This document shows positions 20,401 through 43,862 of a DNA stretch of 43,862 nt, one piece after another. Under the pieces are notes generated by a model that saw only the letters and a list, made by a program, of their open reading frames with translations, did no database searches and was not told where the DNA came from. Position numbers and translations under genes: made by a program. The stretch's first letter is position 1; each line of letters opens with the position of its first letter. The DNA comes from Alphaproteobacteria bacterium (GTDB taxonomy: Bacteria; Pseudomonadota; Alphaproteobacteria; CAAHEQ01; UBA3637), in NCBI GenBank assembly GCA_045118155.1, contig JBGUXS010000010.1, forward strand, positions 1 through 43,862, in the 5' to 3' direction.

Positions 20401-21183
20401 AGAATCTTTAATTGTTAATGTCCCATCCGAATAAATACCCCCCGCGTATGATGTAGCGGTATTTCCCGTAAATGTGGCGTTATTAATGGTTAGATCTCCA
20501 CCTGTATACCCAATTATGGCCCCTCCATAAACGGTTGCGTTATTATTTTTAAAGGTATCAACCCCATTAACCCCAGTGATTGTCGTTGTCCCAGAAGAGA
20601 ATAAGCTACCTCCATAAGAGGCCTCATTACCTTCAAAAGAAGCCCCAGTTATGGTTGCTGTTGTTGCAGTATAGATAGCCCCGCCATTTGTGGAGCTGTT
20701 ACCCGAGAAACTGGCCCCTTCATTGATTGTTAAAACGGCGGAACCGCCATCATTACTAATGGCTCCCCCTACACCGTTTGTTATGGGGGATGTGTTTCCC
20801 GTAAAAGAAGATTGTCCACTAATTGTAACCGTCCCCCCGTAATTATCAACTGCTCCCCCATACCCTGCGGTTGCTGTGTTCCCTGTGAAGGTAAAATCGT
20901 TAATATTTAATGTGCCACTATTTTCAATGGCTCCCCCATAACCAGCAGATAACCCTTCGGCATTGGCCCCAGTAAATTCAACCGTTTTCCCCGAAGCAAT
21001 TTCATAAGAATCCGTTAAGTCTGTATCAATAACGGCCCCATCTGCCGGATAAATTGTCGCTTTTGCGCCAGTAGTTAAAAGAGCAGAACTCATAAAAATT
21101 AATGCATTTAAATAAGCGCATTTTTTTAAAATACGTGTGTAGCTAGCGGATAATTCCCGTAAAGTTGTTTTTGAATATCTCAT
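17440..21183 (-). CDS. Autotransporter with Pmp-type (GGAI / FxxN) passenger repeats and a C-terminal beta-barrel
   Basis: At least a dozen GGA[ILV] motifs alternate with F(T/S/E)GN motifs across ~900 aa. The C-terminal ~280 aa is beta-barrel-like and ends ...KAKYAF. I prefer the start at MRYSKTT (21183), which is followed by a signal peptide ...LLTTGAKA. Confidence 0.85.
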   Translation of the reverse strand: MRYSKTTLRELSASYTRILKKCAYLNALIFMSSALLTTGAKATIYPADGAVIDTDLTDSYEIASGKTVEFTGANAEGLSAGYGGAIENSGTLNINDFTFTGNTATAGYGGAVDNYGGTVTISGQSSFTGNTSPITNGVGGAISNDGGSAVLTINEGASFSGNSSTNGGAIYTATTATITGASFEGNEASYGGSLFSSGTTTITGVNGVDTFKNNNATVYGGAIIGYTGGDLTINNATFTGNTATSYAGGIYSDGTLTIKDSIFDGNSAAQDGAVTDTSGATGGMCITNTIFQNNHANSVGALGLYSKNATSTLDNVQFISNSAINGGSGAAFVGAQGQVIINGAIFDSNTATLAGGAIGTRAHEVGDDSGAKLDISKTTFTGNTAGTNGGAISNYLYNDAAGDGYVKVTDSTFTSNSAENGGAIYNHKGTSQTGSVYLSNTTFTDNTATTAGGAIYNEGTLTLSGTQKFIGNTATLKGGAIYNSGTLTIGDGAFFQDNISLGEGSTLGHGSDIYNDHGIVVIGDNLTVERTSVPAGHDCAIYSPNGGDVTIGNNAKFTGIKEAVVVGGGTHVIGDNAIFTNNRSSINIHSTGTTFTLGKNALFENNPAWTLSTNDGSNATVRIGDGFTLQNNENISTSSSDNFALLYNGKGKSTFEFLGSSTFRNNLVHQNAGVIQNWSYIIFDGDATFENNNAAGNGSSTNGDGGALRNRYGSFAPTATFNGNATFTGNNANYRGGAIFNDKGQIAFNQKAIFENNTAAFGSAIFNDKGTITFESDATFSGNKDQGELNDIYNNQGTLTFKGNTTLDGGIAGSGTTIFTDTASLTVNGGTTTISNTVENQGASLSFVFDKNFSEDTYQLVTGSLDTEFTLNSNALFDITTTDTNGTYAIAKKSSENIAEAVVEAGGTANQAATIAAVATSDSDHPVAQALSESLQTNPSEATKAAEELAPDTSDNVMGVAQAVITLIADAATNRIDILGRSGGDTFTGGNVWVQGLYNHSKQDASQSTTGFKANTAGVAFGLDGKVNDALTLGVGYGYTYTHSHAGSRRLNIDGHNVFVYGAYQPDAWYVHTLAAYGFNPYEEKKAPMGVTFKSKYDVSTYALNVMTGYDFANGLSPEIGARYLLAKQDAYFDGLQRVASNNTDVLTGVVGVKYKTSVQAKDWTFKPTLRLAATYDLHSSDSTAHVTLPGGSSYQIVGERLKRFGVETGVGLETTLKDWTVGLEYTGNFRKDYQSHTGMLKAKYAF

Positions 21184-21272
21184 TTGTTCACTCCCATTTT
21201 CTGAATCAGACACCCTGATAGGGGGCATTATACGGTCAGAAAAGTAAATAAACGGTTAATAAAATAAAAAAC

Positions 21273-24108: not shown

Positions 24109-24813
24109 ATGGATTGTAAATACCAATGTACACCGGCTGTGGCAAATATGTGCCCTATTGCCAAAGGTGTTCATCATAAAAGCGCCCCTATCCCAGAAGA
24201 AGGGAAGTGGGTCAGTTCCAAACAAATCAGTGATATTTCCGGTTTAACACATGGATGTGGGTGTTGCGCCCCGCAACAAGGGACATGTAAATTGACCCTG
24301 AATGTTAAAGATGGGGTAATTCAAGAAGCTTTGGTGGAAACAATTGGGTGTTCTGGGATGACACACTCAGCGGCAATGGCGGCTGAAATTCTGCCAGGTA
24401 AAACTATTTTAGAAGCATTAAACACAGACCTTGTTTGTGATGCTATCAACGTTGCTATGCGAGAATTGTTCTTGCAAATCGTTTACGGGCGGACACAAAC
24501 GGCATTTTCCGAAAATGGGTTACCTATTGGGGCCGGTATGGAAGATTTAGGTAAAGGTTTGCGTTCTATGGTTGGCACAATGTATTCCACGACCGTCAAA
24601 GGACCACGGTATTTGGAAATGACCGAAGGGTATGTGTTAGAGCAGGGCTTAGATGAAAACAATGAAATCATTGGGTACAAGTTTGTCCATGTTGGTAAGA
24701 TGCTAGAGGCCATCCGTAATGGTGTTTCCCCAGAAGAAGCCTTTAAGCAAAACGTCAAAACCTATGGACGTTTTGATGAAGCCGTTAAAAAAGTTGACCC
24801 GAGAAAGGAGTAA
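24109..24813 (+). CDS. IscU/NifU-N-like Fe-S scaffold-type protein with extra N-terminal Cys cluster and C-terminal extension
   Basis: The core GCGCCAPQQGTCKLTLNVKDGVIQEALVETIGCSGMTHSAAMAAEILPGKTILEAL aligns by eye with IscU (GAPACGDVMKL..DG.I.DA.F.T.GCGSAIASSS...GK...EA). Additional Cys residues are at C3, C7 and C15. Confidence 0.7.
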   Translation: MDCKYQCTPAVANMCPIAKGVHHKSAPIPEEGKWVSSKQISDISGLTHGCGCCAPQQGTCKLTLNVKDGVIQEALVETIGCSGMTHSAAMAAEILPGKTILEALNTDLVCDAINVAMRELFLQIVYGRTQTAFSENGLPIGAGMEDLGKGLRSMVGTMYSTTVKGPRYLEMTEGYVLEQGLDENNEIIGYKFVHVGKMLEAIRNGVSPEEAFKQNVKTYGRFDEAVKKVDPRKE

Positions 24814-24816
24814 ATC

Positions 24817-25815
24817 ATGGTGGAATTTGAAGGTTATGAACGTCGGATTGATAAAATCAATCAAATTCTGGCGGAAAATGGATTTAAAGATTTGGAAGAA
24901 GCCAAAGCTTTATGCGAATCAAAAGGGATTGATGTTGCTAAATTAGTTAAAGGAATTCAACCCATTGCTTTTGAAAATGCCGTTTGGGCTTATACTCTTG
25001 GGGCAGCCTTAGCAATTAAAAAAGGTGTTAAAACGGCCTCAGAAGCGGCTAAAATGCTAGGGATTGGGTTACAAGCTTTCTGTGTTCCTGGTTCTGTTGC
25101 TGATCAACGAAAAGTTGGCTTGGGGCATGGTAATTTAGCCGCTATGCTTTTAAGTGAAGAAAGCAAATGCTTCTGCTTTTTAGCTGGGCACGAATCCTTT
25201 GCCGCGGCCGAAGGGGCTATCGGTATTGCTAGATCTGCAAACAAAGTTCGCAAAGAACCCCTTCGCGTTATTTTAAACGGGTTAGGGAAGGATGCAGCCT
25301 ATATTATTTCCCGTATTAATGGATTTACTTTTGTTGAAACAGAGTATGACTATTATACAGGCGAATTAAAAATCGTTTCCGAAAAGCCTTTTTCAACTGG
25401 AGATAAGGCCAAAGTTCGTTGTTATGGTGCCGATGATGTGAACGAAGGGGTCGCCATTATGATTAAAGAAGGTGTGGATGTGTCCATTACTGGAAATTCA
25501 ACTAATCCAACACGTTTCCAACATCCTGTGGCAGGAACTTATAAGAAGTGGGCTACAGAAAATGGTCGGAAGTACTTTTCAGTGGCCAGTGGTGGTGGTA
25601 CAGGTCGGACCTTGCATCCAGATAATGTAGCCGCTGGTCCTGCATCTTATGGGATGACAGATACCATGGGAAGGATGCATTCAGACGCACAATTTGCGGG
25701 ATCTTCATCGGTTCCAGCACATGTGGAAATGATGGGGCTAATCGGTATGGGAAACAACCCAATGGTCGGGGCCTCGGTAGCGGTCGCTGTTGCTGTTGAA
25801 GAAGCATTAAAGTAA
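24817..25815 (+). CDS. GGGtGRT-family protein (function unknown)
   Basis: Contains the eponymous motif SVASGGGTGRTLHPD. Its 332-aa length is typical of the family. It lies 3 nt downstream of the NifU-like gene. Confidence 0.8.
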   Translation: MVEFEGYERRIDKINQILAENGFKDLEEAKALCESKGIDVAKLVKGIQPIAFENAVWAYTLGAALAIKKGVKTASEAAKMLGIGLQAFCVPGSVADQRKVGLGHGNLAAMLLSEESKCFCFLAGHESFAAAEGAIGIARSANKVRKEPLRVILNGLGKDAAYIISRINGFTFVETEYDYYTGELKIVSEKPFSTGDKAKVRCYGADDVNEGVAIMIKEGVDVSITGNSTNPTRFQHPVAGTYKKWATENGRKYFSVASGGGTGRTLHPDNVAAGPASYGMTDTMGRMHSDAQFAGSSSVPAHVEMMGLIGMGNNPMVGASVAVAVAVEEALK

Positions 25816-30187: not shown

Positions 30188-30817
30188 ATGTCTGAGTCTA
30201 CTGTGATGTCCCAAAAAGAATTTGGGGACATGTTGTTGTTCCGTCCAGGAATAAAAAAGATGAAAGAAGCTATCCTAAAAGGATTTGACCTTCATCAATT
30301 TGAAAAAGACCAAAAAATTTCAGTTATTGCCCAATTGATGTTAAGAAATCCCGAAAGGGATTTTTTTTATAGGGAAATTCCTTTTTTTGCAGAACATGGG
30401 GCATCCTTGGGGGGACTGCCAGACACTATTGGTGAAAACCCTATGAGTGTGGCAGTTAGCTTAGGAAATCAAGAATATGTGGAGTTCTTTTTAGAAAATG
30501 GTACAAATATCAATAGACAACGTCCTTATTGGGGGGGATATCTAAACGATGCCGTGCGTTATGGTCATCCAGAACTTGTTCCGTTTTTACTAACACTAGG
30601 GGCGGATCCCACGCTTGCCCCTAGTGATGGGAAAAGTTTTTTTGAGTATCTTAAAACACTCATAAAAAAAGCTGCCAAAAAGGACAAGTCTAGTGAAGAA
30701 AAGCTATACTTTCAGTTATATAGAAAAACACAAAACTTTGTTCGGAAAAAGAAGAGTAAAAGAACTAAGGGGTACCGGGATTTAAACAAATTGCTTTATG
30801 TAGGAAGAAACCGGTAG
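30188..30817 (+). CDS. Ankyrin-repeat protein with a basic C-terminal tail (no signal peptide)
   Basis: ANK-like units are visible: NPMSVAVSLGNQEYVEFFLENGTNIN and LNDAVRYGHPELVPFLLTLGADP. The C-terminal tail is lysine/arginine-rich. Confidence 0.7.
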   Translation: MSESTVMSQKEFGDMLLFRPGIKKMKEAILKGFDLHQFEKDQKISVIAQLMLRNPERDFFYREIPFFAEHGASLGGLPDTIGENPMSVAVSLGNQEYVEFFLENGTNINRQRPYWGGYLNDAVRYGHPELVPFLLTLGADPTLAPSDGKSFFEYLKTLIKKAAKKDKSSEEKLYFQLYRKTQNFVRKKKSKRTKGYRDLNKLLYVGRNR

Positions 30818-30824
30818 TAAAATT

Positions 30825-31697
30825 TTATTCTCCTTTTAAGGCTTTTTTTAATTCAGGGGATAAGTCTGTACGCTTTTTAGCGTAATCGGCCGCCGTTTTT
30901 TCATTATTATCCCTAATATCCGTAAAGGCCCCGCGTTGTAACAGGACTTTGATAATTTCTGGGTTTTTGTTTTGTTTCACTGCGTAAAAAAGGGCAGTTT
31001 GCCCCATAGGATCTTGCTGATTAATCAAGGCCCCAGAACCTAACAACAAATCAATCACCAATGTATTTGGATTTTTGGCAGCGGCCATCATCAAGGGGGT
31101 AACTCCTAACATACCCGAATCATCTGCTTTAGCCCCAAAATGCAAAGCTTGACTAATTTGTTCTGGGGTAGCCTGTTCAATCATTGTTAAAAAGTTCACT
31201 TTGGGTTGAATTTTGATCAAACGCAAAGAAGCCGCTGGCATGGTTGGATTTGAAACGGCATAATCTAAAGCGTTTTTATTATCTATATCCAAAGCAAACA
31301 AATCAGCCCCTGCATCCAATAAAGTCGCAATGATATCAGAATTTGGGTTTTCAGAAGAAACCGCAATCAAAATAGGGGAGTTTTTATAAACATCTTGAGC
31401 ATTCACATTCGCCCCTTTTTCAATCAGCAAATTAACCAACTCTGTTTTTTTTAAAGCCACCGCCATCATTAGGGGAGTTCGGCCAAAAGAATCTGTTTTA
31501 TCTATGCTTGAAGAATTTTTAATAATATCTTGAATTTCATCAATATTTTTATTTTCTTTCATAGCAGCCAAAATATCTATTTCCGGACGTTTTGGGGCTG
31601 GCATTGGGATATCAGCCCCCGTTATCAAGGATTTAGGTTCCCCCCCAAAAACGCAAAAACTAACCCCGAATATTAACAGGAAGATTTTCTTCATCAC
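30825..31697 (-). CDS. Secreted ankyrin-repeat protein (about 6 repeats)
   Basis: Signal peptide MMKKIFLLIFGVSFCVFG. Repeated G.TPLM.A...(N)..(V/I)..LL..GA..N motifs follow. Confidence 0.85.
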   Translation of the reverse strand: MMKKIFLLIFGVSFCVFGGEPKSLITGADIPMPAPKRPEIDILAAMKENKNIDEIQDIIKNSSSIDKTDSFGRTPLMMAVALKKTELVNLLIEKGANVNAQDVYKNSPILIAVSSENPNSDIIATLLDAGADLFALDIDNKNALDYAVSNPTMPAASLRLIKIQPKVNFLTMIEQATPEQISQALHFGAKADDSGMLGVTPLMMAAAKNPNTLVIDLLLGSGALINQQDPMGQTALFYAVKQNKNPEIIKVLLQRGAFTDIRDNNEKTAADYAKKRTDLSPELKKALKGE

Positions 31698-33947: not shown

Positions 33948-35429
33948 TTATACTTTTAATAAGCCATGACTAAACGCATATAAGGCATAGATAGCTATAA
34001 TTAGCAAGCCATACGCCAAAATAGCTTCCCGATAAGTAAAAAACGGTTGAGATCTATCTTGCTGATATTTAGCCACCATATAAACCGGCAATCCCGCTGC
34101 GATAAAGACAATTGCCATCAATAAATAGCTTAATCCAGCCGCATAAATAAGCCACAAAGCATAAATACTTCCCAATACCGCTGTCAATAACGCTTCGGAA
34201 CGTCCAGGTAATTGAGGCACATTTTGATATTCGTGGTCAGTACAAAGTTTCCAAAGATAGGCGCAACTTGTAAAATACGCCGGCAATACCATAACCCCAG
34301 TGATGGAAAGCATTGTATTCCAAGCATTATTTGAAAAATACACCAGTATCATGGCCAGTTGCATCATCCCACTGGTAATCCACAAAGACGTGCAGGGGGC
34401 TTTGTGGGCATTTTCCCGCCCAAACATTTTGGGGAAAGTGCCATTTTGGGCCATTTGATAGGGCATTTCGGCAACAATCATGGTCCAAGCTAACCAAGAA
34501 GCCAAAACCGCTACAATCAGTCCAAAATTCATCAACCAAGCACCCCAATGTCCAACTGCGGCTTCTAAAACACCAGCGGTGGAAGGATTAGCAATGGTAG
34601 CCAATTTTTGTTGCGACATAAAGCCGTAAGGTAAAACCGATAGTAAGACATAAATCCCCAAGCACCCTAAAAAGCCAATGAATGTGGCGCGTCCCACGGA
34701 TTCTTGTGATTTGGCGCGGCCTGATAACACAACGGCCCCTTCAATCCCAATAAAAGCCCATAATGTGACCAGCATTGTGCTTTTAATTTGTTCTGGGATA
34801 GATCCTAATCCTTTAAACCCTTTAAGACGTTCCCCCCAGAAATCAAAATCAAACCGATCGGCTTTAAAAAGGACGGCCATAATGATAATAAATAGAATTA
34901 AAGGTACAATTTTAACAACTGTTGCAACTAGGTTGATAAAACTTGCTTGTTGAATGCCGCGCAGGACCAAACAATTAAAGAACCAAATCAGGATAGAACC
35001 ACCAATAATAGAATTCAGGTTATTTCCCCCCGTAAAGACACCAGGAAAGAAATAATCTAAAGCATCCATAGTAATAACGGCGTACCCGACATTTCCACAA
35101 ATCTGACAGAGCCAATAGCTCCACCCAATATTGAACCCCATGTAGGATCCAAAGCCGGATCTAGCATACATATAGATACCGGCGGTTAAATCCGGTTTGG
35201 CCACAGATAAAATTCGGAATGTATTTGCAATAAAGTAAATACCAATACCCGTAATCAACCAAGCCACTAAAACGGCCCCAACTGAAGCCGCCTGAGCCAT
35301 ATTTTGGGGCAGGGAGTAAATACCCCCGCCAATCATGGAACTAATGACAATAGCCGCCAATCCCATAACCCCCAACCCAGTTCCGCTAGACGGGTTTTTA
35401 GGGGATAAGTTTTGTTTTTGTTTCACCAT
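33948..35429 (-). CDS. aaxC: Basic amino acid/polyamine antiporter (ArcD/AaxC-type; likely arginine/agmatine exchanger)
   Basis: 493-aa, ~12-13 TM APC-superfamily permease. The motif GGGIYSLPQNMAQ is typical of the ArcD/APA family. It lies directly downstream of the pyruvoyl arginine decarboxylase. Confidence 0.75.
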   Translation of the reverse strand: MVKQKQNLSPKNPSSGTGLGVMGLAAIVISSMIGGGIYSLPQNMAQAASVGAVLVAWLITGIGIYFIANTFRILSVAKPDLTAGIYMYARSGFGSYMGFNIGWSYWLCQICGNVGYAVITMDALDYFFPGVFTGGNNLNSIIGGSILIWFFNCLVLRGIQQASFINLVATVVKIVPLILFIIIMAVLFKADRFDFDFWGERLKGFKGLGSIPEQIKSTMLVTLWAFIGIEGAVVLSGRAKSQESVGRATFIGFLGCLGIYVLLSVLPYGFMSQQKLATIANPSTAGVLEAAVGHWGAWLMNFGLIVAVLASWLAWTMIVAEMPYQMAQNGTFPKMFGRENAHKAPCTSLWITSGMMQLAMILVYFSNNAWNTMLSITGVMVLPAYFTSCAYLWKLCTDHEYQNVPQLPGRSEALLTAVLGSIYALWLIYAAGLSYLLMAIVFIAAGLPVYMVAKYQQDRSQPFFTYREAILAYGLLIIAIYALYAFSHGLLKV

Positions 35430-35495
35430 ATAAAGAATCCTTTCATAACAATAAAGGAAAGGAAGAAAAAATCTTCCTTTCTATTTGTAAATAAA

Positions 35496-36089
35496 CTATT
35501 TTTTACGATGTTCTGGCACTGGCGGGGCATATTCAAAATTCAAAAACCCTAAAGCCGTCAAGGAATACCCAAAAGCTTGGGTAATATTCACATAATTATG
35601 GAAAAATTGGAAATCAGAATGTTGTTGCATTCCCCGAATAGATAATTCATGGTTTAAGGATTTTGTCAGCCACATTTCGGCATGGGCTTTGACGATATCA
35701 TCATCAATAAAGGTATCAAAGAATTCCACATATTCAGCGGCCCAGCCCCCGACAAAACGTCCTTTTTTATCTTTACCCCAAACGATACCAACCCCAGTTC
35801 CAATCGCCTTATGTTCTGTGGCGGCGGCCCCATGTCCTGCCATAATCACTTCCAAAACAGCCCCGTGTTTGAAGTATTTTGTAACTGTATCCACTGGAAC
35901 GATATTATTAAGTAATTCTGGGGGTAAAACGGATGTGTAAGGGATCACATTAAAATCTTGGATTTTAGCTTGTAATAAAGCCGAATCATAGCAAAATGTT
36001 TCAAACGGTTGTGGGGGGATCCCATCATCAGACAAACCAGCGCCCCCCGTGTGAAAAGCCAGTGTTGGATATCTTGTCCCTTGTATCAT
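35496..36089 (-). CDS. aaxB: Pyruvoyl-dependent arginine decarboxylase (AaxB/PvlArgDC type)
   Basis: Start at MIQGTRYP with an AGGAGG RBS. The self-processing motif NVIPYT52-S53VLPPE (codons at 35931-35936) matches the Chlamydia AaxB Thr52/Ser53 cleavage site. Length 197 aa. Confidence 0.8.
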
Positions 36090-36250
36090 AATTTCCTCCT
36101 TTTTTATAAAAGACAACAAGTTGTTTCCTCTTGGGAAGGTAAGGGGGCAGGGTGGGGGGTGCAACCTGCCTTAAAGTATAGGATTGAATCTATGCAAACC
36201 CTTCGTTATATAAGGCATGTAGCTTTTTTATTTAACCAAGGAGAATTGTT

Positions 36251-36589
36251 ATGCGTAAATTTTTAATACTATCCGCCGTTTTTGCGGCTATCTGCGCCTG
36301 GGGCTTTCAAGCACAAGCGGAAACAGCTCAAGGAAAAATTAAGTCCCAAAAAGGGGATTATATTGTCATTCTTATGGATGATGGGAACGAAATGAATCTT
36401 GTTGCCACCGATAATACCACTTACCGTAAGAAAAAGATTCAGCGTTATAAAAAAGGAAAGAGTATGCGGCAAGAAAATGGCTATTTTAAACCGCTTATGG
36501 AGCAAGATGATTGGGTGGAAATTACCTATTCGCCTTCGGGAACACCGACCGAATACATCATTGAAGATGTCATTATCTATGATGATTAA
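36251..36589 (+). CDS. Small secreted hypothetical protein (112 aa)
   Basis: Signal peptide MRKFLILSAVFAAICAWGFQAQA, RBS AAGGAG, terminator downstream. Confidence 0.5.
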   Translation: MRKFLILSAVFAAICAWGFQAQAETAQGKIKSQKGDYIVILMDDGNEMNLVATDNTTYRKKKIQRYKKGKSMRQENGYFKPLMEQDDWVEITYSPSGTPTEYIIEDVIIYDD

Positions 36590-36611
36590 GCTATCATAAC
36601 CATTTTTATTC

Positions 36612-36642
36612 AAAAATCCCTGTTTTTTCAGGGATTTTTTAT
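36612..36642 (+). terminator. Rho-independent terminator
   Basis: aaatccctg-tttttt-cagggattt followed by a T-run. Confidence 0.7.
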
Positions 36643-36670
36643 TGACATTTTTATAACAATTTGCTAAAAT
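36642..36670 (+). promoter_or_regulatory. Near-consensus promoter of rnpB
   Basis: TTGACA-17 nt-TAAAAT, ending 6 nt before the predicted RNase P RNA 5' end. Confidence 0.6.
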
Positions 36671-36676
36671 CTGTCT

Positions 36677-37036
36677 ATCAGATGGTCGGATAATCGCTGG
36701 TACACCAACCAGAGGAAAGTCCGGGCTTCCCGAAAGCACGATACCGGATAACGTCCGGGCAGGGTAACCTGACGGAAAGTGCCACAGAAAACAAACCGCC
36801 AAGGATTTCCTTGGTAAGGGTGAAAAGGTAAGGTAAGGGCTTACCGCGTGGATGGTAACATCTCACGGCACGGAAAACCCTATCGGAAGCAAGTCCAAGA
36901 AACGGCAGTCCATGCAAGTGGGAAAATGGGGGCTTTCGCCCAAGCTGCGATGAGGTAGGACGCTTAAGATAAGCAGCAATGCTTATATAAGATGAATGAT
37001 TATCCTAGACAGAACCCGGCTTACAGACCATCTGAT
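36677..37036 (+). ncRNA. rnpB: RNase P RNA, bacterial type A
   Basis: Conserved blocks GAGGAAAGTCCGGGCT, AGTGCCACAGAAA and ACAGAACCCGGCTTA are present. P1 is formed by atcagatggtc (36677-) and gaccatctgat (-37036). Confidence 0.9.
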
Positions 37037-37169
37037 TTTATTTCACAAAAATTTCAAGGCGCTGATCCTGTGACAATACATATTTTTATCCTCAGCGGGC
37101 TGAAAAACGGTGTTTTAATTTTGCCCCAGCGTCATAAAATTATCCTTTAAAGCCATGACGGGCATCAAA

Positions 37170-37503: not shown

Positions 37504-39099
37504 ATGGACATTTATCAAAGATTACTTTCCCACACAAAAACACTAAAAACCTTGCATATGAAGGATTTATTTCAAGCCGATCCCGATCGTTTTGATAAGT
37601 ATCATGTGGAAGTTGGCGATTTCCTATTAGATTATTCCAAGAACATTTTCACGGACGAAACATGGGATTTATTGTACGAACTAGCAAAAACGCACGATTT
37701 AGCCGGCGCTACGGACGATATGTTTTCTGGGCGGCGAATTAATTTCACTGAAAACCGCCCTGTTCTGCATACGGCATTAAGGAATCGGGCGAACACACCT
37801 GTTTTAGTGGACGGTCAAGACGTGATGCCGTGGATTCACACAGAACTTGAAAAAATGCACGCTTTCACGGATGCGGTGCGTCAAAAAATCTTTTTAGGGG
37901 CAACGGGCAAACCCATTACGGACGTTGTTAACATTGGGATTGGCGGGTCAGACTTAGGGCCCTACATGGTGGTTCATGCCCTGGAAGATTATCGGATTAA
38001 GGACATCAATTTTCACTTTGTGTCTAACGTAGATGGCACGGATTTACATTTAACCTTGGAAAAATGCAATCCAGAAACCACCCTATTCATTATTTCATCC
38101 AAGACTTTTACGACCATTGAAACATTAATGAACGCGCGTTCTGCCCGTTCTTGGTTAGTTAAGGCGCTTGGGGAAGCGGCGATTGCGCACCATTTTGTGG
38201 CGGTTTCCACGAACTTACCGGCGGTGGAAGAATTCGGGATAGACCCCAAGAACACCTTTGGTTTTTGGGATTTTGTGGGTGGTCGGTACTCTGTATGGTC
38301 GGCCATAGGTTTATCCGTCATGTTATCCATTGGATATGATAATTTTATTCAGTTTTTAACGGGGGCCTATGACATGGATACGCATTTCAGGTCTGCCCCA
38401 CTTAACAAGAACATGCCGGTCATTATGGGGCTTTTAGGGGTTTTATACACGACATATTTTGGGGCCGAATCGTACGCCGTCTTACCGTATGATCAATATT
38501 TAAAAGACCTGCCCGCTTATTTGCAACAACTAGACATGGAAAGTAACGGCAAAGGGGTCAATAAATCTGGGCATTTTGTGGATTATGCCACGGGTCCGAT
38601 TTTATTTGGGGCGGCAGGAACGAACGGGCAACATTCGTTTTATCAGTTAATTCATCAAGGGACCCACCTGATTCCGTGTGATTTTATTGCCCCGATTGAA
38701 CCGCTTCATGACGATGGCGACCATCACAAGATGTTATTGGCGAATTTCCTTGCTCAGCCCGAGGCCTTAATGATGGGGCGGGATGCGGCGCAATTAAAAG
38801 CCGAAAATGTGCCAGAAAACCTGATTCCCTATCGGACATTTTTGGGCAACCGGCCAACAAACACCTTACTTTTCAAGAAATTAACGCCTAAAAATTTGGG
38901 AATGCTGATTGCCCTGTATGAACACAAAGTTTTTGTGCAAGGGGTGATTTGGCGCATTGACAGTTTTGATCAATGGGGGGTGGAATTGGGTAAGAAGTTA
39001 GCGACCTCGGTTTATGAAAAATTAAATGATAAAAATCAAGAACTTAATTTTAGTTCATCAACCAATGCATTAATTAAAAAGATCCAAGGAAATGGATGA
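37504..39099 (+). CDS. pgi: Glucose-6-phosphate isomerase
   Basis: [27 protein letters not shown] and [11 protein letters not shown] motifs, 531 aa. Confidence 0.95.
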
Positions 39100-39142
39100 A
39101 GAAGTGAGGGAACGAATCAGCTTTTAACAAGGGGGATATGAT

Positions 39143-42100
39143 ATGTTGGCATGGTTTTCATTTTTTATGTTATTAATCGGGGGACTACTTTACACCTTTC
39201 TATCCCCAGATTTAAGAAGTGCCGATGAACGGAATCTGCCTTATGCACGGGCGGCGATCATGCAACTTGTTTCCCGGCACCAAGGGGCGGTCAAGCTAGC
39301 GACCCTTAACTTAGCCAATATCAAGGTGCAACTAGGTCTTTCTGACGCAGATTTTTCCACCAACGAAGCGTACGGCAAGAATTTGTTTACAACGTCCCCA
39401 GTAAACACGGCCCTTGTTGGGATCTTAGCGCCCCACAAGATGGCGGAACTGATGCCATCGGGGTTAGGCAAAAGTTTTACCGAAATCCGCACCCTGCCCT
39501 TACCTGATTATCACAGTTATAACAGTGTCTTTGCCTGTTTAGACGACAGGGGCGAAATCACATCCACCTGTGCGCAAAACAAATCGTACGTATTGACTTA
39601 TGGGTATCAGCAAGATTGGTGGGACGAACGGGCGAAAAAGGATAATTTATGGCAAAAGGCCTTGGCAAAAGAAACCGAAGGGGCTTGTGGGGTTTTGTCT
39701 TGTACATCCACATCCTGTCAAATCAAATCCGGCACCAAGTTAACCCCCTTCCCTAATGCCTTATATCGCTTACTGGTCAATGATGCCCTTGTTCACACGG
39801 GGGGCAGATATCCCCTAGTGGGCTTAACGGTGTGTTTAACCCAAGTATCTGTGGGACCAGATAAGTCCACCCCACCAGAATATGGCAACGGGACGTCTGA
39901 TATTGGGGTAGAATGTCTTGAAAATGAAGATTGTACAGAACCTGGGAAAACCTATTGCAACCCTGCCACCTTTCGGTGCGAAGAGTTAGGGTCGGTGGCA
40001 GAATGTCAAGCGGCTCATTCCAAAAAGCCCCATTACATAGAAAATTTTGGATGTGTAGAATGTTTAGAAGATTCTGATTGTCCGGCCGCCACCCCCAATT
40101 GTGATCTCAATGGGGGGCATCAATGTGTAGGATGTTTTTCCAATGCTCAATGTCATACGGGGATGATTTGTTCAGATGGTATTTGTATAACCTGTCCGGC
40201 GGGAACCCATTATAAAGATGCGACGGTGGGCTGTGTAGCGTGTTTAGACAACACCCATTGTGCCGCCCAAGGGATGGTTTGCACAGCCAATATGTGTGTT
40301 CCCTGTGCTGAAGGGACGTATTATAAAGATGCGACAGCGGGCTGTGTATCCTGTACGGCGGACAGCCATTGCCCCGAAGTATGTGATACCACGCAAAATA
40401 TGTGTACAACATGCGCCCTAAAAACCCCGTCCACCCCGCATTACAACGACATAGACGGCACGTGTGTGGCGTGTTTAGAAAATACCCACTGCCCCAATGC
40501 CACCCCCTATTGTGTCCCAACGACCCACACCTGCAAAGTACCAGAGACCAATGAAGAATGTCAGTCTGTGGACCCCACCAAGCCCATTTATGACACGCCC
40601 ACGGGCACCTGTGTAGAATGCCACAGTAACAGCCATTGTACAAACGAAAAGCCCATTTGTGATACGGTGGCACACACCTGTCGGGCGGGCAGTGGGTTGC
40701 CTTACCCGTGTGAAGGGAATGGCGATTGTTCGGGCACACAAGTTTGCCAAAACGGCATTTGTACCTTGTCTTGTCGGACGCAAAGCGACCCAGATGGCTA
40801 TTGCCACACCCTGTTCGGGGCGGATTGGGCGTGTGATATGAGCAGCTCTACCACCGCCACCTTAGTGGGGGGATATTGTCAATATTGCCTGTACACCTAT
40901 GATGGACAGGTTCAAGATTTGCGGGATATTCGCCTTGCCACATCCACGGGGGTGACGGCCCAGCAATTTACAACCTCGGGTCAGGTGTATAACTATTGGC
41001 ATAATGACACCGCCACAACCTATAAGAATGCGTGTTTAGTGAATGTAACGACGGCGGATACCGATTGCCCGTCTGTCCGACCGGATTTATGCGGGGATGC
41101 GTATTATTGGATGCCCTATGGGCAATTGCCCGCTGAAATTAACATAACGGATAACCGTGGGGTCAGCACCTGGCGGGCATGCACCAAAAATTCGGCGACA
41201 ACAACAGCCGGTAAATACGGCATGTTTGCCACCACCGGTACCAATCCCGTGTATATGACCAAGGTAGATGGAGACGGATGGCTCATTCACCGTGACAGTG
41301 TGTACAGTTATCCGTTGGGGATGGCGTATTACCCCTTATGCACACCGGCGTGTTGGCATGGCACAGAAAGTGCCACTACCCCAACCTGTTATAAAATGAC
41401 CCATACCTGGGGGCCGGCACCAACATCCACGGCGGATTGTCAGAATATTGCCCCGTCCTTGGTGTATGATACGGCCACAAACAAGTGTGTTAATGCCACC
41501 GACCCCGCGGCCACTTGTCGTAAAGCAGGGAAAGTGTATGATGAAGGAACGGGCGCTTGCCGTGTTCCCGAAGACGATACCGATTGCGCGTGGATTGACC
41601 CGTTAAAGCCGACCTATACCAATGGCACCTGCACGGATGCGTGTGCCACCTGTGCCGACGGGGTGTGTGATCCCACCGGTCAATGCGTGCTTAATCAAGA
41701 AGAAATCACCTGTGATGAAGCCGCTGATTGTCCGGCGGGATATACATGTGCGGGGCATATGTGTTCGCTGTATTGTTATAATAAGGGGAATAACAAGACA
41801 AATCGGGATGCCTATTGCCATAACATGTTTGGGGAAAATTGGGCATGTGATCCGAATTATGTTCTCGGGGGGTATTGCTGGCCGTGTGTGGTGGATTACG
41901 ACGGGGGTACCATGGACATCCGGGACTTTAAGTTTGCATCGTCCGTGGATGGGTCTGACGGGGGGGTGAACGCCAATGCCGGTGTCACGGCGGGTGCCAT
42001 TCAGACCTTCTTTACGGATCCCAACGATAAAATGAATTCCCCGTGTCTTTATGGGGCGTATAAGGTGGGGGTAAATACGGCCGGTAACTATAACAACAGC

Positions 42101-43237
42101 ACCTATATGACAGATCGGGATACCGATTGCCCCGTGGTGCATCCGGGGTTGTGCGGAACGGATCACGAATGGGTGCCGTTAAAGTTCCTAAAAACCCTGA
42201 ATCCTGCCCAAGATTACGGGAACGATTTTCAGGGCCTTGCCGCCCGGATGCGGGCATGCACGATTAGGACAAACTCTGGGACAAATTTAGTTGCGGGCAG
42301 TTGGACACGGGTACGCCAAGATTACGCCTATGCGAAATATTTCCAGAATAGTGGCCGAGTACTCCCTGCGTCAGATATCACCGGGAATTATTACATCATG
42401 TGTATGCCGGCCTGTTATAAAAACGAACCGGATGGAAACAATACCTATTGTTATAAAGACCTGCATGAATGGGGGCCGGTGCCGACGTCGCACGCCATGT
42501 GTCAAGCGGCGGATCATACCCTGCCCTATTATGACGCCCAAACACACAAATGTATTGCCCCAACCGATAATGCAGGATGCCGGGCGGTGGATGCGACCAA
42601 GCCCTATTATATCGCGGGTCGGGGCTGTGTGCCGTGTACATCCACAACCCAAACCACCGATTGCACGGATCCCGCCAAACCCGTTTGTGATCAAATGATA
42701 TACGAATGTGTGGGATGCACGAATACCTATGATGCGGATGGAATCGCAACGGGGGATACTTGCCCCGCGGGGAAATATTGCCGGCACGATACGATATATG
42801 AATATAATGGGGAATCTCGTTCGTGTGACAAGCGTCAACCATGGCCCGGGGTTTGCCAAAACATTCCGACATATGATACGGCCGTCATAAACGGCGAAAC
42901 GTGGGTCGCAACGCGGTCATCTTCTAATATGCGGTGGTGGAACGCGATGAGCTTCTGTGCCAAAATCGGCGCTAAACCCGTCACACGTGCCGATATTTGT
43001 GATGGGGGGACCACGACGGCAGAGTGCCTGAACAGCCCTACTTGGAAGGAATTACACCGTGTGTTTAACACCGAAGCCAAAGCCATTTATGGGTCATCTA
43101 GCACGGCACGGACATATTGTTGGACAAAAGAAGATTATCCCTCCTATTCCTGCAACGCCTATAACGTCAATCTGTCTACTGGTACTGTTGGCAACTCCAA
43201 TCGGACTAGCAGCTGCTATGCTTTGTGTAAGTATTGA
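39143..43237 (+). CDS. Giant cysteine-rich membrane-anchored mosaic protein (1364 aa), family unknown
   Basis: Single long ORF with RBS GGGGGA and an in-frame TAA 15 nt upstream of the ATG. It has an N-terminal hydrophobic segment (residues 3-19). The first ~250 aa are Cys-poor, followed by about 100 Cys in CxxC-type repeats, two paralogous ~250-aa modules and a lectin-like C-terminus. A terminator lies downstream. Confidence 0.8.
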   Translation: MLAWFSFFMLLIGGLLYTFLSPDLRSADERNLPYARAAIMQLVSRHQGAVKLATLNLANIKVQLGLSDADFSTNEAYGKNLFTTSPVNTALVGILAPHKMAELMPSGLGKSFTEIRTLPLPDYHSYNSVFACLDDRGEITSTCAQNKSYVLTYGYQQDWWDERAKKDNLWQKALAKETEGACGVLSCTSTSCQIKSGTKLTPFPNALYRLLVNDALVHTGGRYPLVGLTVCLTQVSVGPDKSTPPEYGNGTSDIGVECLENEDCTEPGKTYCNPATFRCEELGSVAECQAAHSKKPHYIENFGCVECLEDSDCPAATPNCDLNGGHQCVGCFSNAQCHTGMICSDGICITCPAGTHYKDATVGCVACLDNTHCAAQGMVCTANMCVPCAEGTYYKDATAGCVSCTADSHCPEVCDTTQNMCTTCALKTPSTPHYNDIDGTCVACLENTHCPNATPYCVPTTHTCKVPETNEECQSVDPTKPIYDTPTGTCVECHSNSHCTNEKPICDTVAHTCRAGSGLPYPCEGNGDCSGTQVCQNGICTLSCRTQSDPDGYCHTLFGADWACDMSSSTTATLVGGYCQYCLYTYDGQVQDLRDIRLATSTGVTAQQFTTSGQVYNYWHNDTATTYKNACLVNVTTADTDCPSVRPDLCGDAYYWMPYGQLPAEINITDNRGVSTWRACTKNSATTTAGKYGMFATTGTNPVYMTKVDGDGWLIHRDSVYSYPLGMAYYPLCTPACWHGTESATTPTCYKMTHTWGPAPTSTADCQNIAPSLVYDTATNKCVNATDPAATCRKAGKVYDEGTGACRVPEDDTDCAWIDPLKPTYTNGTCTDACATCADGVCDPTGQCVLNQEEITCDEAADCPAGYTCAGHMCSLYCYNKGNNKTNRDAYCHNMFGENWACDPNYVLGGYCWPCVVDYDGGTMDIRDFKFASSVDGSDGGVNANAGVTAGAIQTFFTDPNDKMNSPCLYGAYKVGVNTAGNYNNSTYMTDRDTDCPVVHPGLCGTDHEWVPLKFLKTLNPAQDYGNDFQGLAARMRACTIRTNSGTNLVAGSWTRVRQDYAYAKYFQNSGRVLPASDITGNYYIMCMPACYKNEPDGNNTYCYKDLHEWGPVPTSHAMCQAADHTLPYYDAQTHKCIAPTDNAGCRAVDATKPYYIAGRGCVPCTSTTQTTDCTDPAKPVCDQMIYECVGCTNTYDADGIATGDTCPAGKYCRHDTIYEYNGESRSCDKRQPWPGVCQNIPTYDTAVINGETWVATRSSSNMRWWNAMSFCAKIGAKPVTRADICDGGTTTAECLNSPTWKELHRVFNTEAKAIYGSSSTARTYCWTKEDYPSYSCNAYNVNLSTGTVGNSNRTSSCYALCKY

Positions 43238-43276
43238 GTTTTCGCTTTTTAAATTTACTTTAAACTTTTTCACTTT

Positions 43277-43309
43277 GTGTCCGCCGTTTCCGGCGGGCAC
43301 TTTCCTTTG
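43277..43309 (+). terminator. Terminator-like GC hairpin after the giant gene
   Basis: gtgtccgccg-tttc-cggcgggcac 10-bp stem followed by tttccttt. Confidence 0.55.
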
Positions 43310-43332
43310 TCGCGAAGCGACCGCGCCGCCCT

Positions 43333-43862
43333 GTCATCCCTCGCCGACGGCCCGATAGGGACGGCGCGTCAAGGGATCCCTTTCCCCCATCTGGGGAATC
43401 TATACGTTCGTGTAAAATAAGGCATTGATTGTTAGAGACCCCTGGACGTTGGGCTTACGCCCAACGAGGGGTGACAGGAAAGACGGATTGTCATCCCTCG
43501 CCGACCTTCCGTTTCAAGGTCGGCGTCAAGGGATCCCAAACATGAAAGGCCTTTTACTTGTCATCCCTCCCGACGGCCCGATAGGGACGGCGCGTCAAGG
43601 GATCCCAAACATGAAAGGCCTTATTTTACGGTTAGTAGGGCCGTCCTTTCTGTGGAAAAAGGGACCCCTGGACGTTTTCTTTCAGAAAACGAGGGGTGAC
43701 GGGAAAAGAATGTCATCCCTCGCCGACCTTCCGTTTCAAGGTCGGCGTCAAGGGATCCCAAACAACCAATACCACCTTGTCATCCCTCGCGGGGGGGCGT
43801 GGGGCATTTTGCCCCACGAGGTCCCTTGACGCGCCACCTTTTCAAGGTGTCGGGAGGGATGA
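43333..43862. repeat. Array of at least 8 GC-rich imperfect-palindrome (REP/BIME-like) elements in both orientations; truncated by the window end
   Basis: Consensus GTCA[T/C]CCCTCG-(variable stem-loop)-CGTC[A/C]AGGG[A/G]TC. Forward copies are at 43333-43378, 43490-43535, 43560-43604 and 43712-43757, plus a hybrid at 43779. Inverted copies are at 43437-43475, 43663-43700 and 43821 to the window end. Confidence 0.85.

Follow-up and report, generated by a model that had tools for sequence, protein, structure and literature searches.

The open reading frame at 39143..43237 very probably encodes the variable (target) protein of a chromosomal diversity-generating retroelement (DGR). The window analysed here is a whole contig of 43,862 nt from an alphaproteobacterium, and this frame is its longest, at 1364 aa against 1262 aa for the second longest. 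A preliminary description of this DNA had noted its length and its 106 cysteines, which the ORF list and our recount bear out, but had presented it as a family that could not be named and a candidate for an undescribed system. We do not agree with that part: the gene reads as a DGR target, a known system with the usual layout (PMC8144416, PMC5758913). Cellular DGR targets usually combine an N-terminal transmembrane segment or signal peptide, adhesion domains and a C-terminal variable repeat (PMC8144416), and reported sizes range from 44 to 2697 aa (PMC5758913). Bacterial proteins whose binding tip is hypervariable form a known class, and the giant protein is a large member of it with an unusual build. 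The features discussed below are as follows.

39130..39136, + strand: Shine-Dalgarno-like AGGGGGA, read from the sequence, 6 nt before the ATG
39143..43237, + strand: gene for the probable DGR variable (target) protein, 1364 aa, 106 Cys; orthologue P0001 is 94% identical
39143..39214, + strand: N-terminal hydrophobic segment, aa 1-24, the sole hydrophobic 19-mer of the protein, conserved in P0003
39215..39892, + strand: orphan N-terminal domain, to aa 250, 6 Cys
39893..40702, + strand: Cys-rich repeat region 1, aa 251-520, 38 Cys, unit roughly CVxCxxxxxCPxxxPxCDxxxxxC
40703..41452, + strand: orphan module copy A, aa 521-770, 17 Cys, paralogue of copy B
41453..41704, + strand: Cys-rich linker repeats, aa 771-854, from sequence comparison
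41705..42517, + strand: orphan module copy B, aa 855-1125, 17 Cys, paralogue of copy A
42518..42853, + strand: Cys-rich repeat region 3, aa 1126-1237, from sequence comparison
42854..43234, + strand: C-terminal C-type-lectin-like domain, last 127 aa, from an AF2 model, Foldseek and a family profile
43142..43253, + strand: variable repeat (VR), homologous to the template repeat (TR) of sister strains
43154..43216, + strand: hypervariable core, codons 1338-1358, matching a stretch of the TR with 11 in-frame AAY codons
43217..43253, + strand: invariant 3' end of the TR/VR homology, with the stop codon (43235-43237) inside
43277..43300, + strand: GC-rich hairpin, 10-bp stem (8 GC), 4-nt loop TTTC, 23 nt past the end of the homology

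The evidence that carries this conclusion lies at the 3' end of the gene. In a sister contig (L001), whose flanks are 98% identical to those of the window, a 113-nt inverted repeat links the 3' end of the orthologue, its VR, to a TR in the spacer between the genes for Avd and a reverse transcriptase (RT). The VR of the window spans codons 1334-1364 and 16 nt past the stop. Compared with the TR of L001 and L093, which comes from sister strains and not from the window, it has 12 mismatches, and all 12 fall on TR adenines; adenines make up 37 of the 113 TR positions, which puts the chance expectation at about 0.33^12 ≈ 1e-6. The VR of L001 differs from its own TR in the same way (15/15), for a pooled count of 27/27, and the TR, once its adenines are masked, aligns to the window without a single mismatch. 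Three strains have an identical TR, while their RTs differ and so do the VRs.

The consequences for the protein are concentrated in the hypervariable core, which has 10 amino-acid differences from the sister strain. The dN/dS ratio of the gene against the sister strain is 5.7 in the VR (16 non-synonymous changes and 1 synonymous) and 0.23 outside it, compared with 0.07 for pgi. Judging by these ratios, the gene outside its tip is under purifying selection. The preliminary description had also made a point of the even number of cysteines. The count is right, but it is not a conserved property: the codon of Cys1358 is DGR-variable and the sister strain has Tyr there, which leaves 105 conserved cysteines.

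Beyond the core, the segment 43217..43253 is identical in the TR and all VRs despite containing adenines. It sits in the position of the IMH and may well function as one. The hairpin downstream of it is a candidate element of DGR target recognition, but it also looks like a terminator, and it could be one or both. The recognition element described by Guo et al. 2011 (PMC3240598) is a GC-rich hairpin whose 4-nt loop reads GRNA and which lies 4-34 bp past the VR; the window hairpin fits the stem, the loop size and the distance, but its loop is TTTC on the sense strand and reads GAAA only on the other strand. GC-rich hairpins also lie downstream of the VRs in L085 and L086.

The cassette can be read directly in the sister contigs. 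In L001 it lies 2.2 kb downstream of the orthologue, between it and enolase, and the order after the orthologue is GIY-YIG, RVT_1 (393 aa), bAvd and then enolase. The cassette itself has the order avd–TR–RT, with the TR exactly between the other two. RVT_1 is present in L001, L090 and L093; the RTs of L001 and L093, as well as P0060, have the IGNLTSQ and YVDD motifs. Avd is found in L001 and L093 by Pfam (bAvd), and it matches NCBIfam DivGenRetAVD with E = 6.4e-18 and a sub-threshold score (65 bits, where the cutoff is 80). A search for viral relatives of the RT found none. The window contains no RT, Avd or TR; the contig stops at 43862, among repeat elements and 625 nt past the gene, which would leave the cassette outside it. 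An NCBI-sourced RT with intact motifs is 98.5% identical to the RT of a sister strain and an NCBI-sourced Avd is identical to the sister strain's. In the cluster of the giant protein, the window's own sequence is the sole NCBI member. Genes for ankyrin-repeat proteins and PMP-repeat autotransporters also lie near the target gene.

The domain that bears the VR, which the preliminary description had called lectin-like, models as a C-type-lectin fold. The AF2 model, built on a 45-sequence alignment, has a pLDDT of 76.5 and a pTM of 0.74, and a Foldseek search of the PDB gave C-type lectin-like domains in all 50 of the matches listed, including the C-terminal domain of Legionella Lcl (8q4e) and Bdellovibrio Bd2740 (8oks). 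The family profile found only C-type lectins among PDB sequences, and matches in a viral library include phage DUF1566 proteins. Sequence families are less forthcoming. The match to Pfam PF07603 Lcl_C (DUF1566) spans profile positions 11-115 of 117 but stays below the gathering threshold (16.1 against 34.9 bits, E = 0.014), and weak Lcl_C matches occur in 8 of the 45 family members. PF00059 Lectin_C gives no match for the window's domain and weak ones in 14 of the 45 (best E = 2e-4); the likeness to Lectin_C is at the fold level only.

About 50 small homologues of this domain exist. The one whose surroundings are fully readable, P0048 from another alphaproteobacterial MAG, adjoins bAvd and RVT_1 and has its own TR/VR pair, in which 9 of 10 mismatches are on TR adenines and the tenth lies beyond the stop codon. 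At the related loci L085-L087 the small CLec targets adjoin proteins with a prepilin-like N-terminus; these signals are type IV in style, though sub-threshold. An hhalign comparison of the giant protein with the pilin-like proteins was negative, and the giant protein shows no pilin signature.

The remainder of the protein was well outlined in the preliminary description, and our results support its single N-terminal hydrophobic segment, its cysteine-poor first 250 residues and its twice-present module of about 250 aa. A Kyte-Doolittle scan of the whole protein exceeds 1.4 in one 19-mer window only, within aa 1-24. There is no Cys or lipobox near this segment, and we infer that it is a signal-anchor. 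Searches of Pfam, NCBIfam and the PDB gave no match for the N-terminal domain, and P0003, at 62% identity, is its sole relative beyond the orthologues. Cysteine makes up 7.8% of the protein, which has 14 CxxC motifs, and the last 127 aa contain 8 Cys. The two modules are clearly paralogous (aa 523-767 against 857-1121, 30% identity, E = 1.5e-39). A profile of the module searched against 1.84e9 representative proteins found real relatives only in P0001, P0054 and P0056, and the AF2 model of copy A failed (pLDDT 36.5).

The closest matches of the repeats, as far as sequence can tell, are bacterial. Repeat region 1 weakly matches the repeat region of Myxococcus TraA, the sole NCBIfam match of the giant protein (E = 3.3e-8), with 32.6 bits against a cutoff of 750 and over the repeat region only, which places it outside TraA (NF033759)/TIGR04201. 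P0002, named a Cys-rich repeat protein by its source, has 32% identity over 18% of the query. Pfam over the whole protein found no family at E ≤ 1. The preliminary description had likened these repeats to furin and VSP proteins and proposed envelope cross-linking of the Chlamydia OmcA/B type. Neither likeness held up: whole or by segments, the protein had no Pfam match to OmcA/OmcB, Giardia VSP or furin-like repeat families apart from GF_recep_IV in the segment searches (E = 0.068), and no OmcA/B-type family came from NCBIfam. No PA14 domain or C-terminal sorting-tag family was reported for the whole protein by Pfam or NCBIfam. The scaffold of about 1200 residues, made of the orphan N-domain, the TraA-like repeats and the two modules, probably forms a long stalk by analogy with TraA.

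We believe these parts fit together in the following way. In DGRs a TR is copied, errors are introduced at its adenines and the copy replaces the VR. Here the hydrophobic N-terminal helix would hold the protein in the inner membrane or start its export, a disulfide-bonded scaffold would follow this anchor, and the C-type-lectin-fold domain would stand at the far end. An Avd–TR–RT cassette, whose presence and activity we infer for this genome, would lie just past the contig end. Its TR would be transcribed and then reverse-transcribed with random misincorporation opposite adenines, and the gene's final ~100 nt would be replaced by the cDNA. On the binding face of the lectin domain as many as 11 residues templated by AAY codons, and a few more, would be rewritten in this way, with the scaffold left constant. 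AAY codons cannot mutate to a stop, so the theoretical repertoire would be about 1e13-1e14 sequences. The protein would probably serve to bind, in an adjustable way, an external ligand that itself changes, for instance the surface of a host, a protist, another microbe, a phage or a particle.

It is important to ask whether the retroelement still works in this genome. The gene could be a relic, once diversified, whose retroelement has since been lost or inactivated here, leaving an adhesin or receptor of fixed sequence. The lack of an RT, Avd or TR in the window fits this, as does the sharing of one VR allele by 3 of the 4 recovered contigs, among which there are only two alleles. Loss does occur in the lineage: the distant relative L082/L083 has pgi, a short frameshifted target and eno with no cassette between them. 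However, the VRs of the window and the sister strain differ at TR-adenine positions only, despite flanks that are 98% identical, which implies homing after the strains split. The frame is also intact and shows purifying selection, and the NCBI-sourced RT and Avd come most simply from the same assembly. We therefore consider a relic unlikely. That the TR likeness is a coincidental repeat, and that ordinary positive selection, or recombination, at a binding site produced the VR differences, is hardly credible. The patches at aa 251-300, 901-950 and 1051-1100 also differ between strains more than average, as this would lead one to expect, but the adenine specificity of the mismatches refutes it, and it would have to explain a repeat placed exactly between Avd and RT, a TR rich in AAY codons and a like pattern at the independent locus of P0048.

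The idea of a new family of disulfide-cross-linked envelope or host-interaction proteins that is not diversified at all, possibly acquired from a eukaryote, would surprise us greatly. The conserved cysteines speak for it, as does the lack of any Pfam family across some 90% of the protein. So does the raised GC3 of the gene, 0.52 where most window genes have about 0.28-0.41, and the ankyrin and autotransporter neighbours suggest a host-associated organism. Yet it leaves the adenine signature, the conserved TR and the sister-strain cassette unexplained, the eukaryotic and chlamydial families it calls for were not detected, and the best repeat matches are bacterial. As for a possible lateral acquisition, the pgi–target–eno position is kept in a divergent relative whose N-domain is only 62% identical, and the GC3 of the adjoining glycolytic genes pgi (0.46) and eno (0.49) is similarly raised. 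Contamination by mis-assembled eukaryotic DNA, which the preliminary description had allowed for, is excluded: in independent assemblies the gene has bacterial genes on either side. As an alternative the non-diversified reading is largely refuted, and all that is left of it is its account of the scaffold. From the earlier proposal of a surface or secreted host-interaction protein we would keep an extracytoplasmic, disulfide-rich protein with an N-terminal anchor, whose lectin-like C-terminus most plausibly binds something outside the cell; envelope cross-linking is not supported. An inner-membrane anchor in a diderm cell leaves the export of such a giant to the surface unexplained.

Among the closest known systems are Legionella pneumophila LdtA and the 'category d' (DUF1566/CLec2) targets, about half of which have N-terminal adhesion-type extensions (Wu et al. 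2018, PMC5758913). Like the giant protein, they have a chromosomal DGR, a VR in the last codons of a C-terminal C-type-lectin-type domain and conserved cysteines that suggest extracellular disulfides, and the sub-threshold Lcl_C similarity points the same way. However, LdtA is an outer-membrane lipoprotein, whereas the giant protein lacks a lipobox and its hydrophobic N-terminus looks uncleaved, and nothing in this category corresponds to its scaffold with two orphan modules. Mtd of Bordetella phage BPP-1 and TvpA of Treponema denticola, the most closely studied DGR variable proteins, share the C-terminal CLec-fold VR and, if the hairpin here is its counterpart, the inverted repeat downstream of it (PMC3240598, PMC2408619), and the mechanism appears alike (Avd–TR–RT, adenine mutagenesis, AAY codons). 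They have no sequence similarity to the giant protein; the BPP-1 element is on a phage while this one is cellular, between housekeeping genes, and here target and cassette lie on opposite strands and the hairpin loop is not GRNA.

TraA of Myxococcus xanthus offers a parallel for the stalk. It combines a PA14 domain, TIGR04201 Cys-rich repeats and MYXO-CTERM, and its repeats have been proposed to form a rigid stalk presenting a polymorphic lectin-like recognition domain (PMC3325183). The tandem CxxC-type repeats are alike, but the giant protein lacks PA14 and MYXO-CTERM, its orientation is reversed, with the anchor N-terminal and the recognition domain C-terminal, and its variation comes from a retroelement rather than allelic polymorphism. 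The adhesins of Bacteroides Type V pili (bioRxiv 10.1101/2024.11.15.621889), from gut-associated DGRs, carry a diversified tip on an extended surface structure; here it is the small CLec targets of L085-L087, not the giant protein, that come close to such an arrangement.

No new mechanism is revealed by this work; it is a known DGR system with unusual orphan scaffold domains. What was an apparent orphan giant becomes a testable object, with its variable residues, template and enzyme defined. The catalogue of DGR targets gains an extreme scaffold, with 105 conserved cysteines and a doubled domain seen in three other sequences among 1.84 billion representatives. The results also point to a small clade of uncultured Alphaproteobacteria in which the lectin-type tip would be either fused to a giant stalk or made as a small secreted protein. 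A bolder reading, improbable but a little less so than a relic, is that the scaffold is a new envelope structure, with new folds in the N-domain and modules and a rigid disulfide-stapled stalk under a DGR-programmable lectin tip, and that the stand-alone domains are DGR-diversified tips of type IV-like pili. If true, this would be a lineage-specific family of programmable adhesins undescribed for Alphaproteobacteria. The CPAGKYC unit of repeat region 3 weakly resembles repeats in the pilin-like neighbours of the small CLec targets (E about 0.2-0.5).

We confirm the 1364-aa open reading frame at 39143..43237 (+), the longest one in the window, and a good Shine-Dalgarno sequence lies upstream of its ATG. 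Its cysteines are laid out much as the preliminary description had them. They number 106 (7.8%): aa 1-250 contain 6 and aa 251-520 contain 38, each of two ~250-aa modules has 17, and the C-terminal 127 aa have 8; 14 CxxC motifs are present, and aa 1-24 is the sole stretch hydrophobic enough for a membrane segment. Judging from its sequence, we believe this giant protein to be the target of a diversity-generating retroelement (DGR), of a known class, and what appears to be new about it is its unusual scaffold. The cassette itself was read in sister strains.

The orthologue P0001 (94% identity) sits on L001, a 230-kb sister-strain contig with 98% flank identity to the window. After the giant gene come a small GIY-YIG gene, an RVT_1 reverse transcriptase (RT, 393 aa), the accessory variability determinant bAvd (119 aa) and enolase (eno), the RT and bAvd genes both lying on the opposite strand. 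A 113-nt inverted repeat pairs the 3'-terminal 97 nt of the giant gene and 16 nt past its stop with the spacer between Avd and RT, where this template repeat (TR) ends 14 nt ahead of the RT start codon. The order avd–TR–RT is that of a DGR. The RT carries the motifs IGNLTSQ and YVDD, and Avd has a match to NCBIfam DivGenRetAVD (E = 6e-18, below the family's score cutoff). Viral contigs scanned with the RT gave no match.

The mismatches carry an adenine signature. Every mismatch between the L001 TR and its own variable repeat (VR) falls on a TR adenine (15/15), and so does every mismatch with the window's VR (12/12). Since adenines make up only 37/113 of the TR, the probability of such a pattern by chance is about 1e-6 or less. 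With all adenines masked, the TR pattern matches 43142..43228 with 0 mismatches and nothing else in the window. An identical TR is shared by L001, a second sister strain (L090, a partial copy) and a third (L093, whose RT differs at several residues), so it is conserved while the VRs differ. Read in frame with the giant gene it holds 11 AAY codons, each of which can give 15 amino acids and no stop, and together with the other adenine-containing codons they set a theoretical repertoire of roughly 1e13-1e14. When the window is compared with L001, dN/dS comes to 5.7 for codons 1334-1364 (16 non-synonymous changes and 1 synonymous), 0.23 for the remainder of the gene and 0.07 for pgi. C1358 comes from one of the variable codons, and the sister strain has Tyr at this position, so the conserved cysteine count is 105 rather than 106.

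The C-terminus was called lectin-like from the outset, and this is correct. Searching with a profile of the giant protein's last ~165 aa brought up ~50 small proteins (125-250 aa). A signal-peptide-like N-terminus is seen in most of them, and a precomputed Pfam domain in none. Conservation runs through their alignment (MNWWSAFxWC … VNLSSGAV … R … YALCE) and is lost at exactly the VR positions. Against PDB sequences the family profile returns C-type lectins only (CD69, E = 0.002), and against Pfam there are weak matches to Lectin_C in 14/45 members and to Lcl_C in 8/45; the window's own domain scores 16.1 bits against Lcl_C, where the threshold is 34.9. An AF2 model built from the family alignment (pLDDT 76.5, pTM 0.74) has C-type lectin-like structures as 50/50 of the Foldseek PDB matches listed, among them the C-terminal domain of Legionella Lcl and Bd2740 of Bdellovibrio, and a viral library returned C-type lectins and phage DUF1566 proteins. 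The C-type-lectin fold is the standard fold of DGR variable regions. One small relative, P0048, is encoded in the alphaproteobacterial MAG GCA_017453485.1 (locus L085) next to bAvd, RVT_1 and GIY-YIG genes and has its own TR/VR pair, in which 9/10 mismatches fall on TR adenines and the remaining one lies past the stop codon.

In three related loci carrying such small DGR-type lectin genes, a gene for a Cys-rich protein of 445-483 aa lies upstream of the lectin gene (L085 2281-3663; L086 4536-5987; L087 4652-5989). The N-terminus of these proteins resembles a prepilin cleavage/methylation motif, G|RSMIEML plus a hydrophobic helix, which TIGR02532 scores at 14.4 bits (cutoff 16.3). The two genes may encode a pilus-associated, DGR-diversified adhesin. 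A relationship between these pilin-like proteins and the N-domain of the giant protein (aa 1-250) was considered and rejected (hhalign probability 0.3%). In L085 (1-2264), a protein of 1560 aa that combines teneurin-type EGF repeats with a BigA-like domain immediately precedes the pilin-like gene and the cassette; tblastn found no similarity between it and the giant protein.

How does the giant protein compare with known DGR targets? Cellular targets typically begin with a transmembrane segment or signal peptide, continue with domains for adhesion or carbohydrate binding and carry the VR at the C-terminus (PMC8144416). Targets as small as 44 aa and as large as 2697 aa have been reported, and Legionella LdtA belongs to a class whose C-terminal domains are of a weak DUF1566 type (PMC5758913). 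The mechanism and layout seen here fit that class. The scaffold is unusual, with 105 conserved cysteines, orphan domains of two types and no lipobox.

Pfam gave no match to the whole giant protein, and its search with seven separate segments produced nothing significant, only Lcl_C below threshold. A search of 5.8 billion protein clusters with the full-length protein yielded two proteins, the orthologue and a soil-type 'Cys-rich repeat protein' whose similarity is confined to the repeats. No relative of the whole protein turned up in a scan of the GTDB species genomes, neither aa 1-520 nor the C-terminal 165 aa matched any PDB sequence, and a metagenome-contig scan added no contig to the one already found. 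The sole NCBIfam match is weak (32.6 bits, cutoff 750) and aligns aa 248-390 with the Cys-rich repeat region of Myxococcus TraA. The Cys-repeat unit of the giant protein, CVxCxxxxxCPxxxPxCDxxxxxC, resembles the TraA repeats, which have been proposed to form a rigid stalk presenting a recognition domain (PMC3325183). By analogy, the repeats here likely serve as such a stalk.

The two modules (aa 523-767 and aa 857-1121) are paralogues with 30% identity (E = 1.5e-39). Against 1.84 billion representatives the module profile found as real relatives only the orthologue and the fragments P0054 and P0056. It also matched nine short stretches of P0055, a 2645-aa eukaryotic Ig-repeat protein, which we judge to be a repeat or composition artefact. 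The contig of P0054 (L088 1-2917) holds a fragmentary mosaic in which Cys repeats are combined with one module and two lectin-like domains, both internal rather than C-terminal; it has an in-frame stop, and a separate small lectin gene comes after it. An AF2 model of the first module from a 7-row alignment (pLDDT 36.5) is not usable.

Outside the orthologues the N-domain has a single relative, P0003 (62% identity). Its gene also lies after pgi and encodes ~570 aa, made up of the N-domain, a few Cys repeats and the lectin domain, with no modules. It is frameshifted (L082 575-2296, the same in L083) and enolase follows directly, with no RT or Avd after it in either contig. From this locus it follows that the pgi–target–eno position is old in the lineage, that the modules are an insertion in the giant gene and that the DGR can be lost. 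The frameshifted gene is apparently either a decaying target after DGR loss or an assembly artefact common to the two assemblies.

The neighbouring genes are bacterial and include pgi, RNase P RNA, rpsD, uvrD, transketolase and a FadL-type outer-membrane protein. Other features are as follows.

17440..21228 (-): autotransporter, 1262 aa; Chlamydia PMP-type repeats, beta-barrel domain at the C-terminus
24109..25815 (+): GGGtGRT-family protein (E = 7e-197)
30188..30817 (+) and 30825..31697 (-): two ankyrin-repeat proteins, recognised through synteny with annotated L001 genes
33948..36164 (-): amino-acid permease adjoining pyruvoyl-dependent arginine decarboxylase (PvlArgDC)
36678..37039 (+): bacterial class A RNase P RNA (290 bits)

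The ankyrin-repeat proteins suggest a host-associated lifestyle, and the permease and PvlArgDC may form an arginine/agmatine system. A 234-aa ORF upstream of the GGGtGRT gene has no Pfam match, and the long minus-strand ORFs 36269..36802 and 36678..36917 are spurious because they overlap the RNase P RNA. The best transketolase matches in the GTDB species genomes reach 50-56% identity and are spread over many alphaproteobacterial orders, so this is a divergent alphaproteobacterium with no close representative there. The names of the related contig records (XIEF21…, TONG22…) suggest what we take to be ruminant-gut metagenome catalogues. Lateral acquisition of the giant gene had also been raised. 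Within 37504..43237 its GC3 (0.52), like that of pgi (0.46), is raised over most window genes (0.28-0.41), and downstream in L001 eno (0.49) and a SIS gene (0.48) are raised and the RT is low (0.30). Composition does not decide the matter because the GC3 of the giant gene is close to that of pgi and eno.

Past the giant gene's stop the window is near-identical to L001 but lacks the GIY-YIG insertion. Its last 530 nt (43332..43862) hold five copies of a short repeat element (TGTCATCCCTC … GTCAAGGGATCCC) found nowhere else in the 43.8-kb contig; pattern searches gave 5 and 4 copies, all within 43332..43788. The contig stops inside these repeats, 625 nt past the giant gene, and the cassette is therefore missing from the window. 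The RT cluster includes an NCBI-sourced protein, P0060 (393 aa, six substitutions, motifs intact), on a 24,211-nt contig, Avd has an unchanged copy from an NCBI source, and the cluster of the window's giant protein has no other NCBI member. These findings are most simply explained if the predicted cassette of this genome sits on that 24,211-nt contig. In L001 the same repeat elements flank the 101-aa GIY-YIG gene that is missing from the window, and the L085 locus has similar elements and a GIY-YIG gene too.

A further feature follows the VR.

43277..43300 (+): hairpin, 10-bp stem containing 8 GC pairs, 4-nt loop, 23 nt past the end of the TR/VR homology

The target-recognition element of BPP-1 and other DGRs has a stem of 7-10 bp and a 4-nt loop and lies 4-34 bp from the VR (PMC3240598). 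The hairpin fits in size, GC content and distance, but its sense-strand loop is TTTC, not GRNA. A T-rich, terminator-like tract comes after it, and GC-rich hairpins lie downstream of the L085 and L086 VRs as well.
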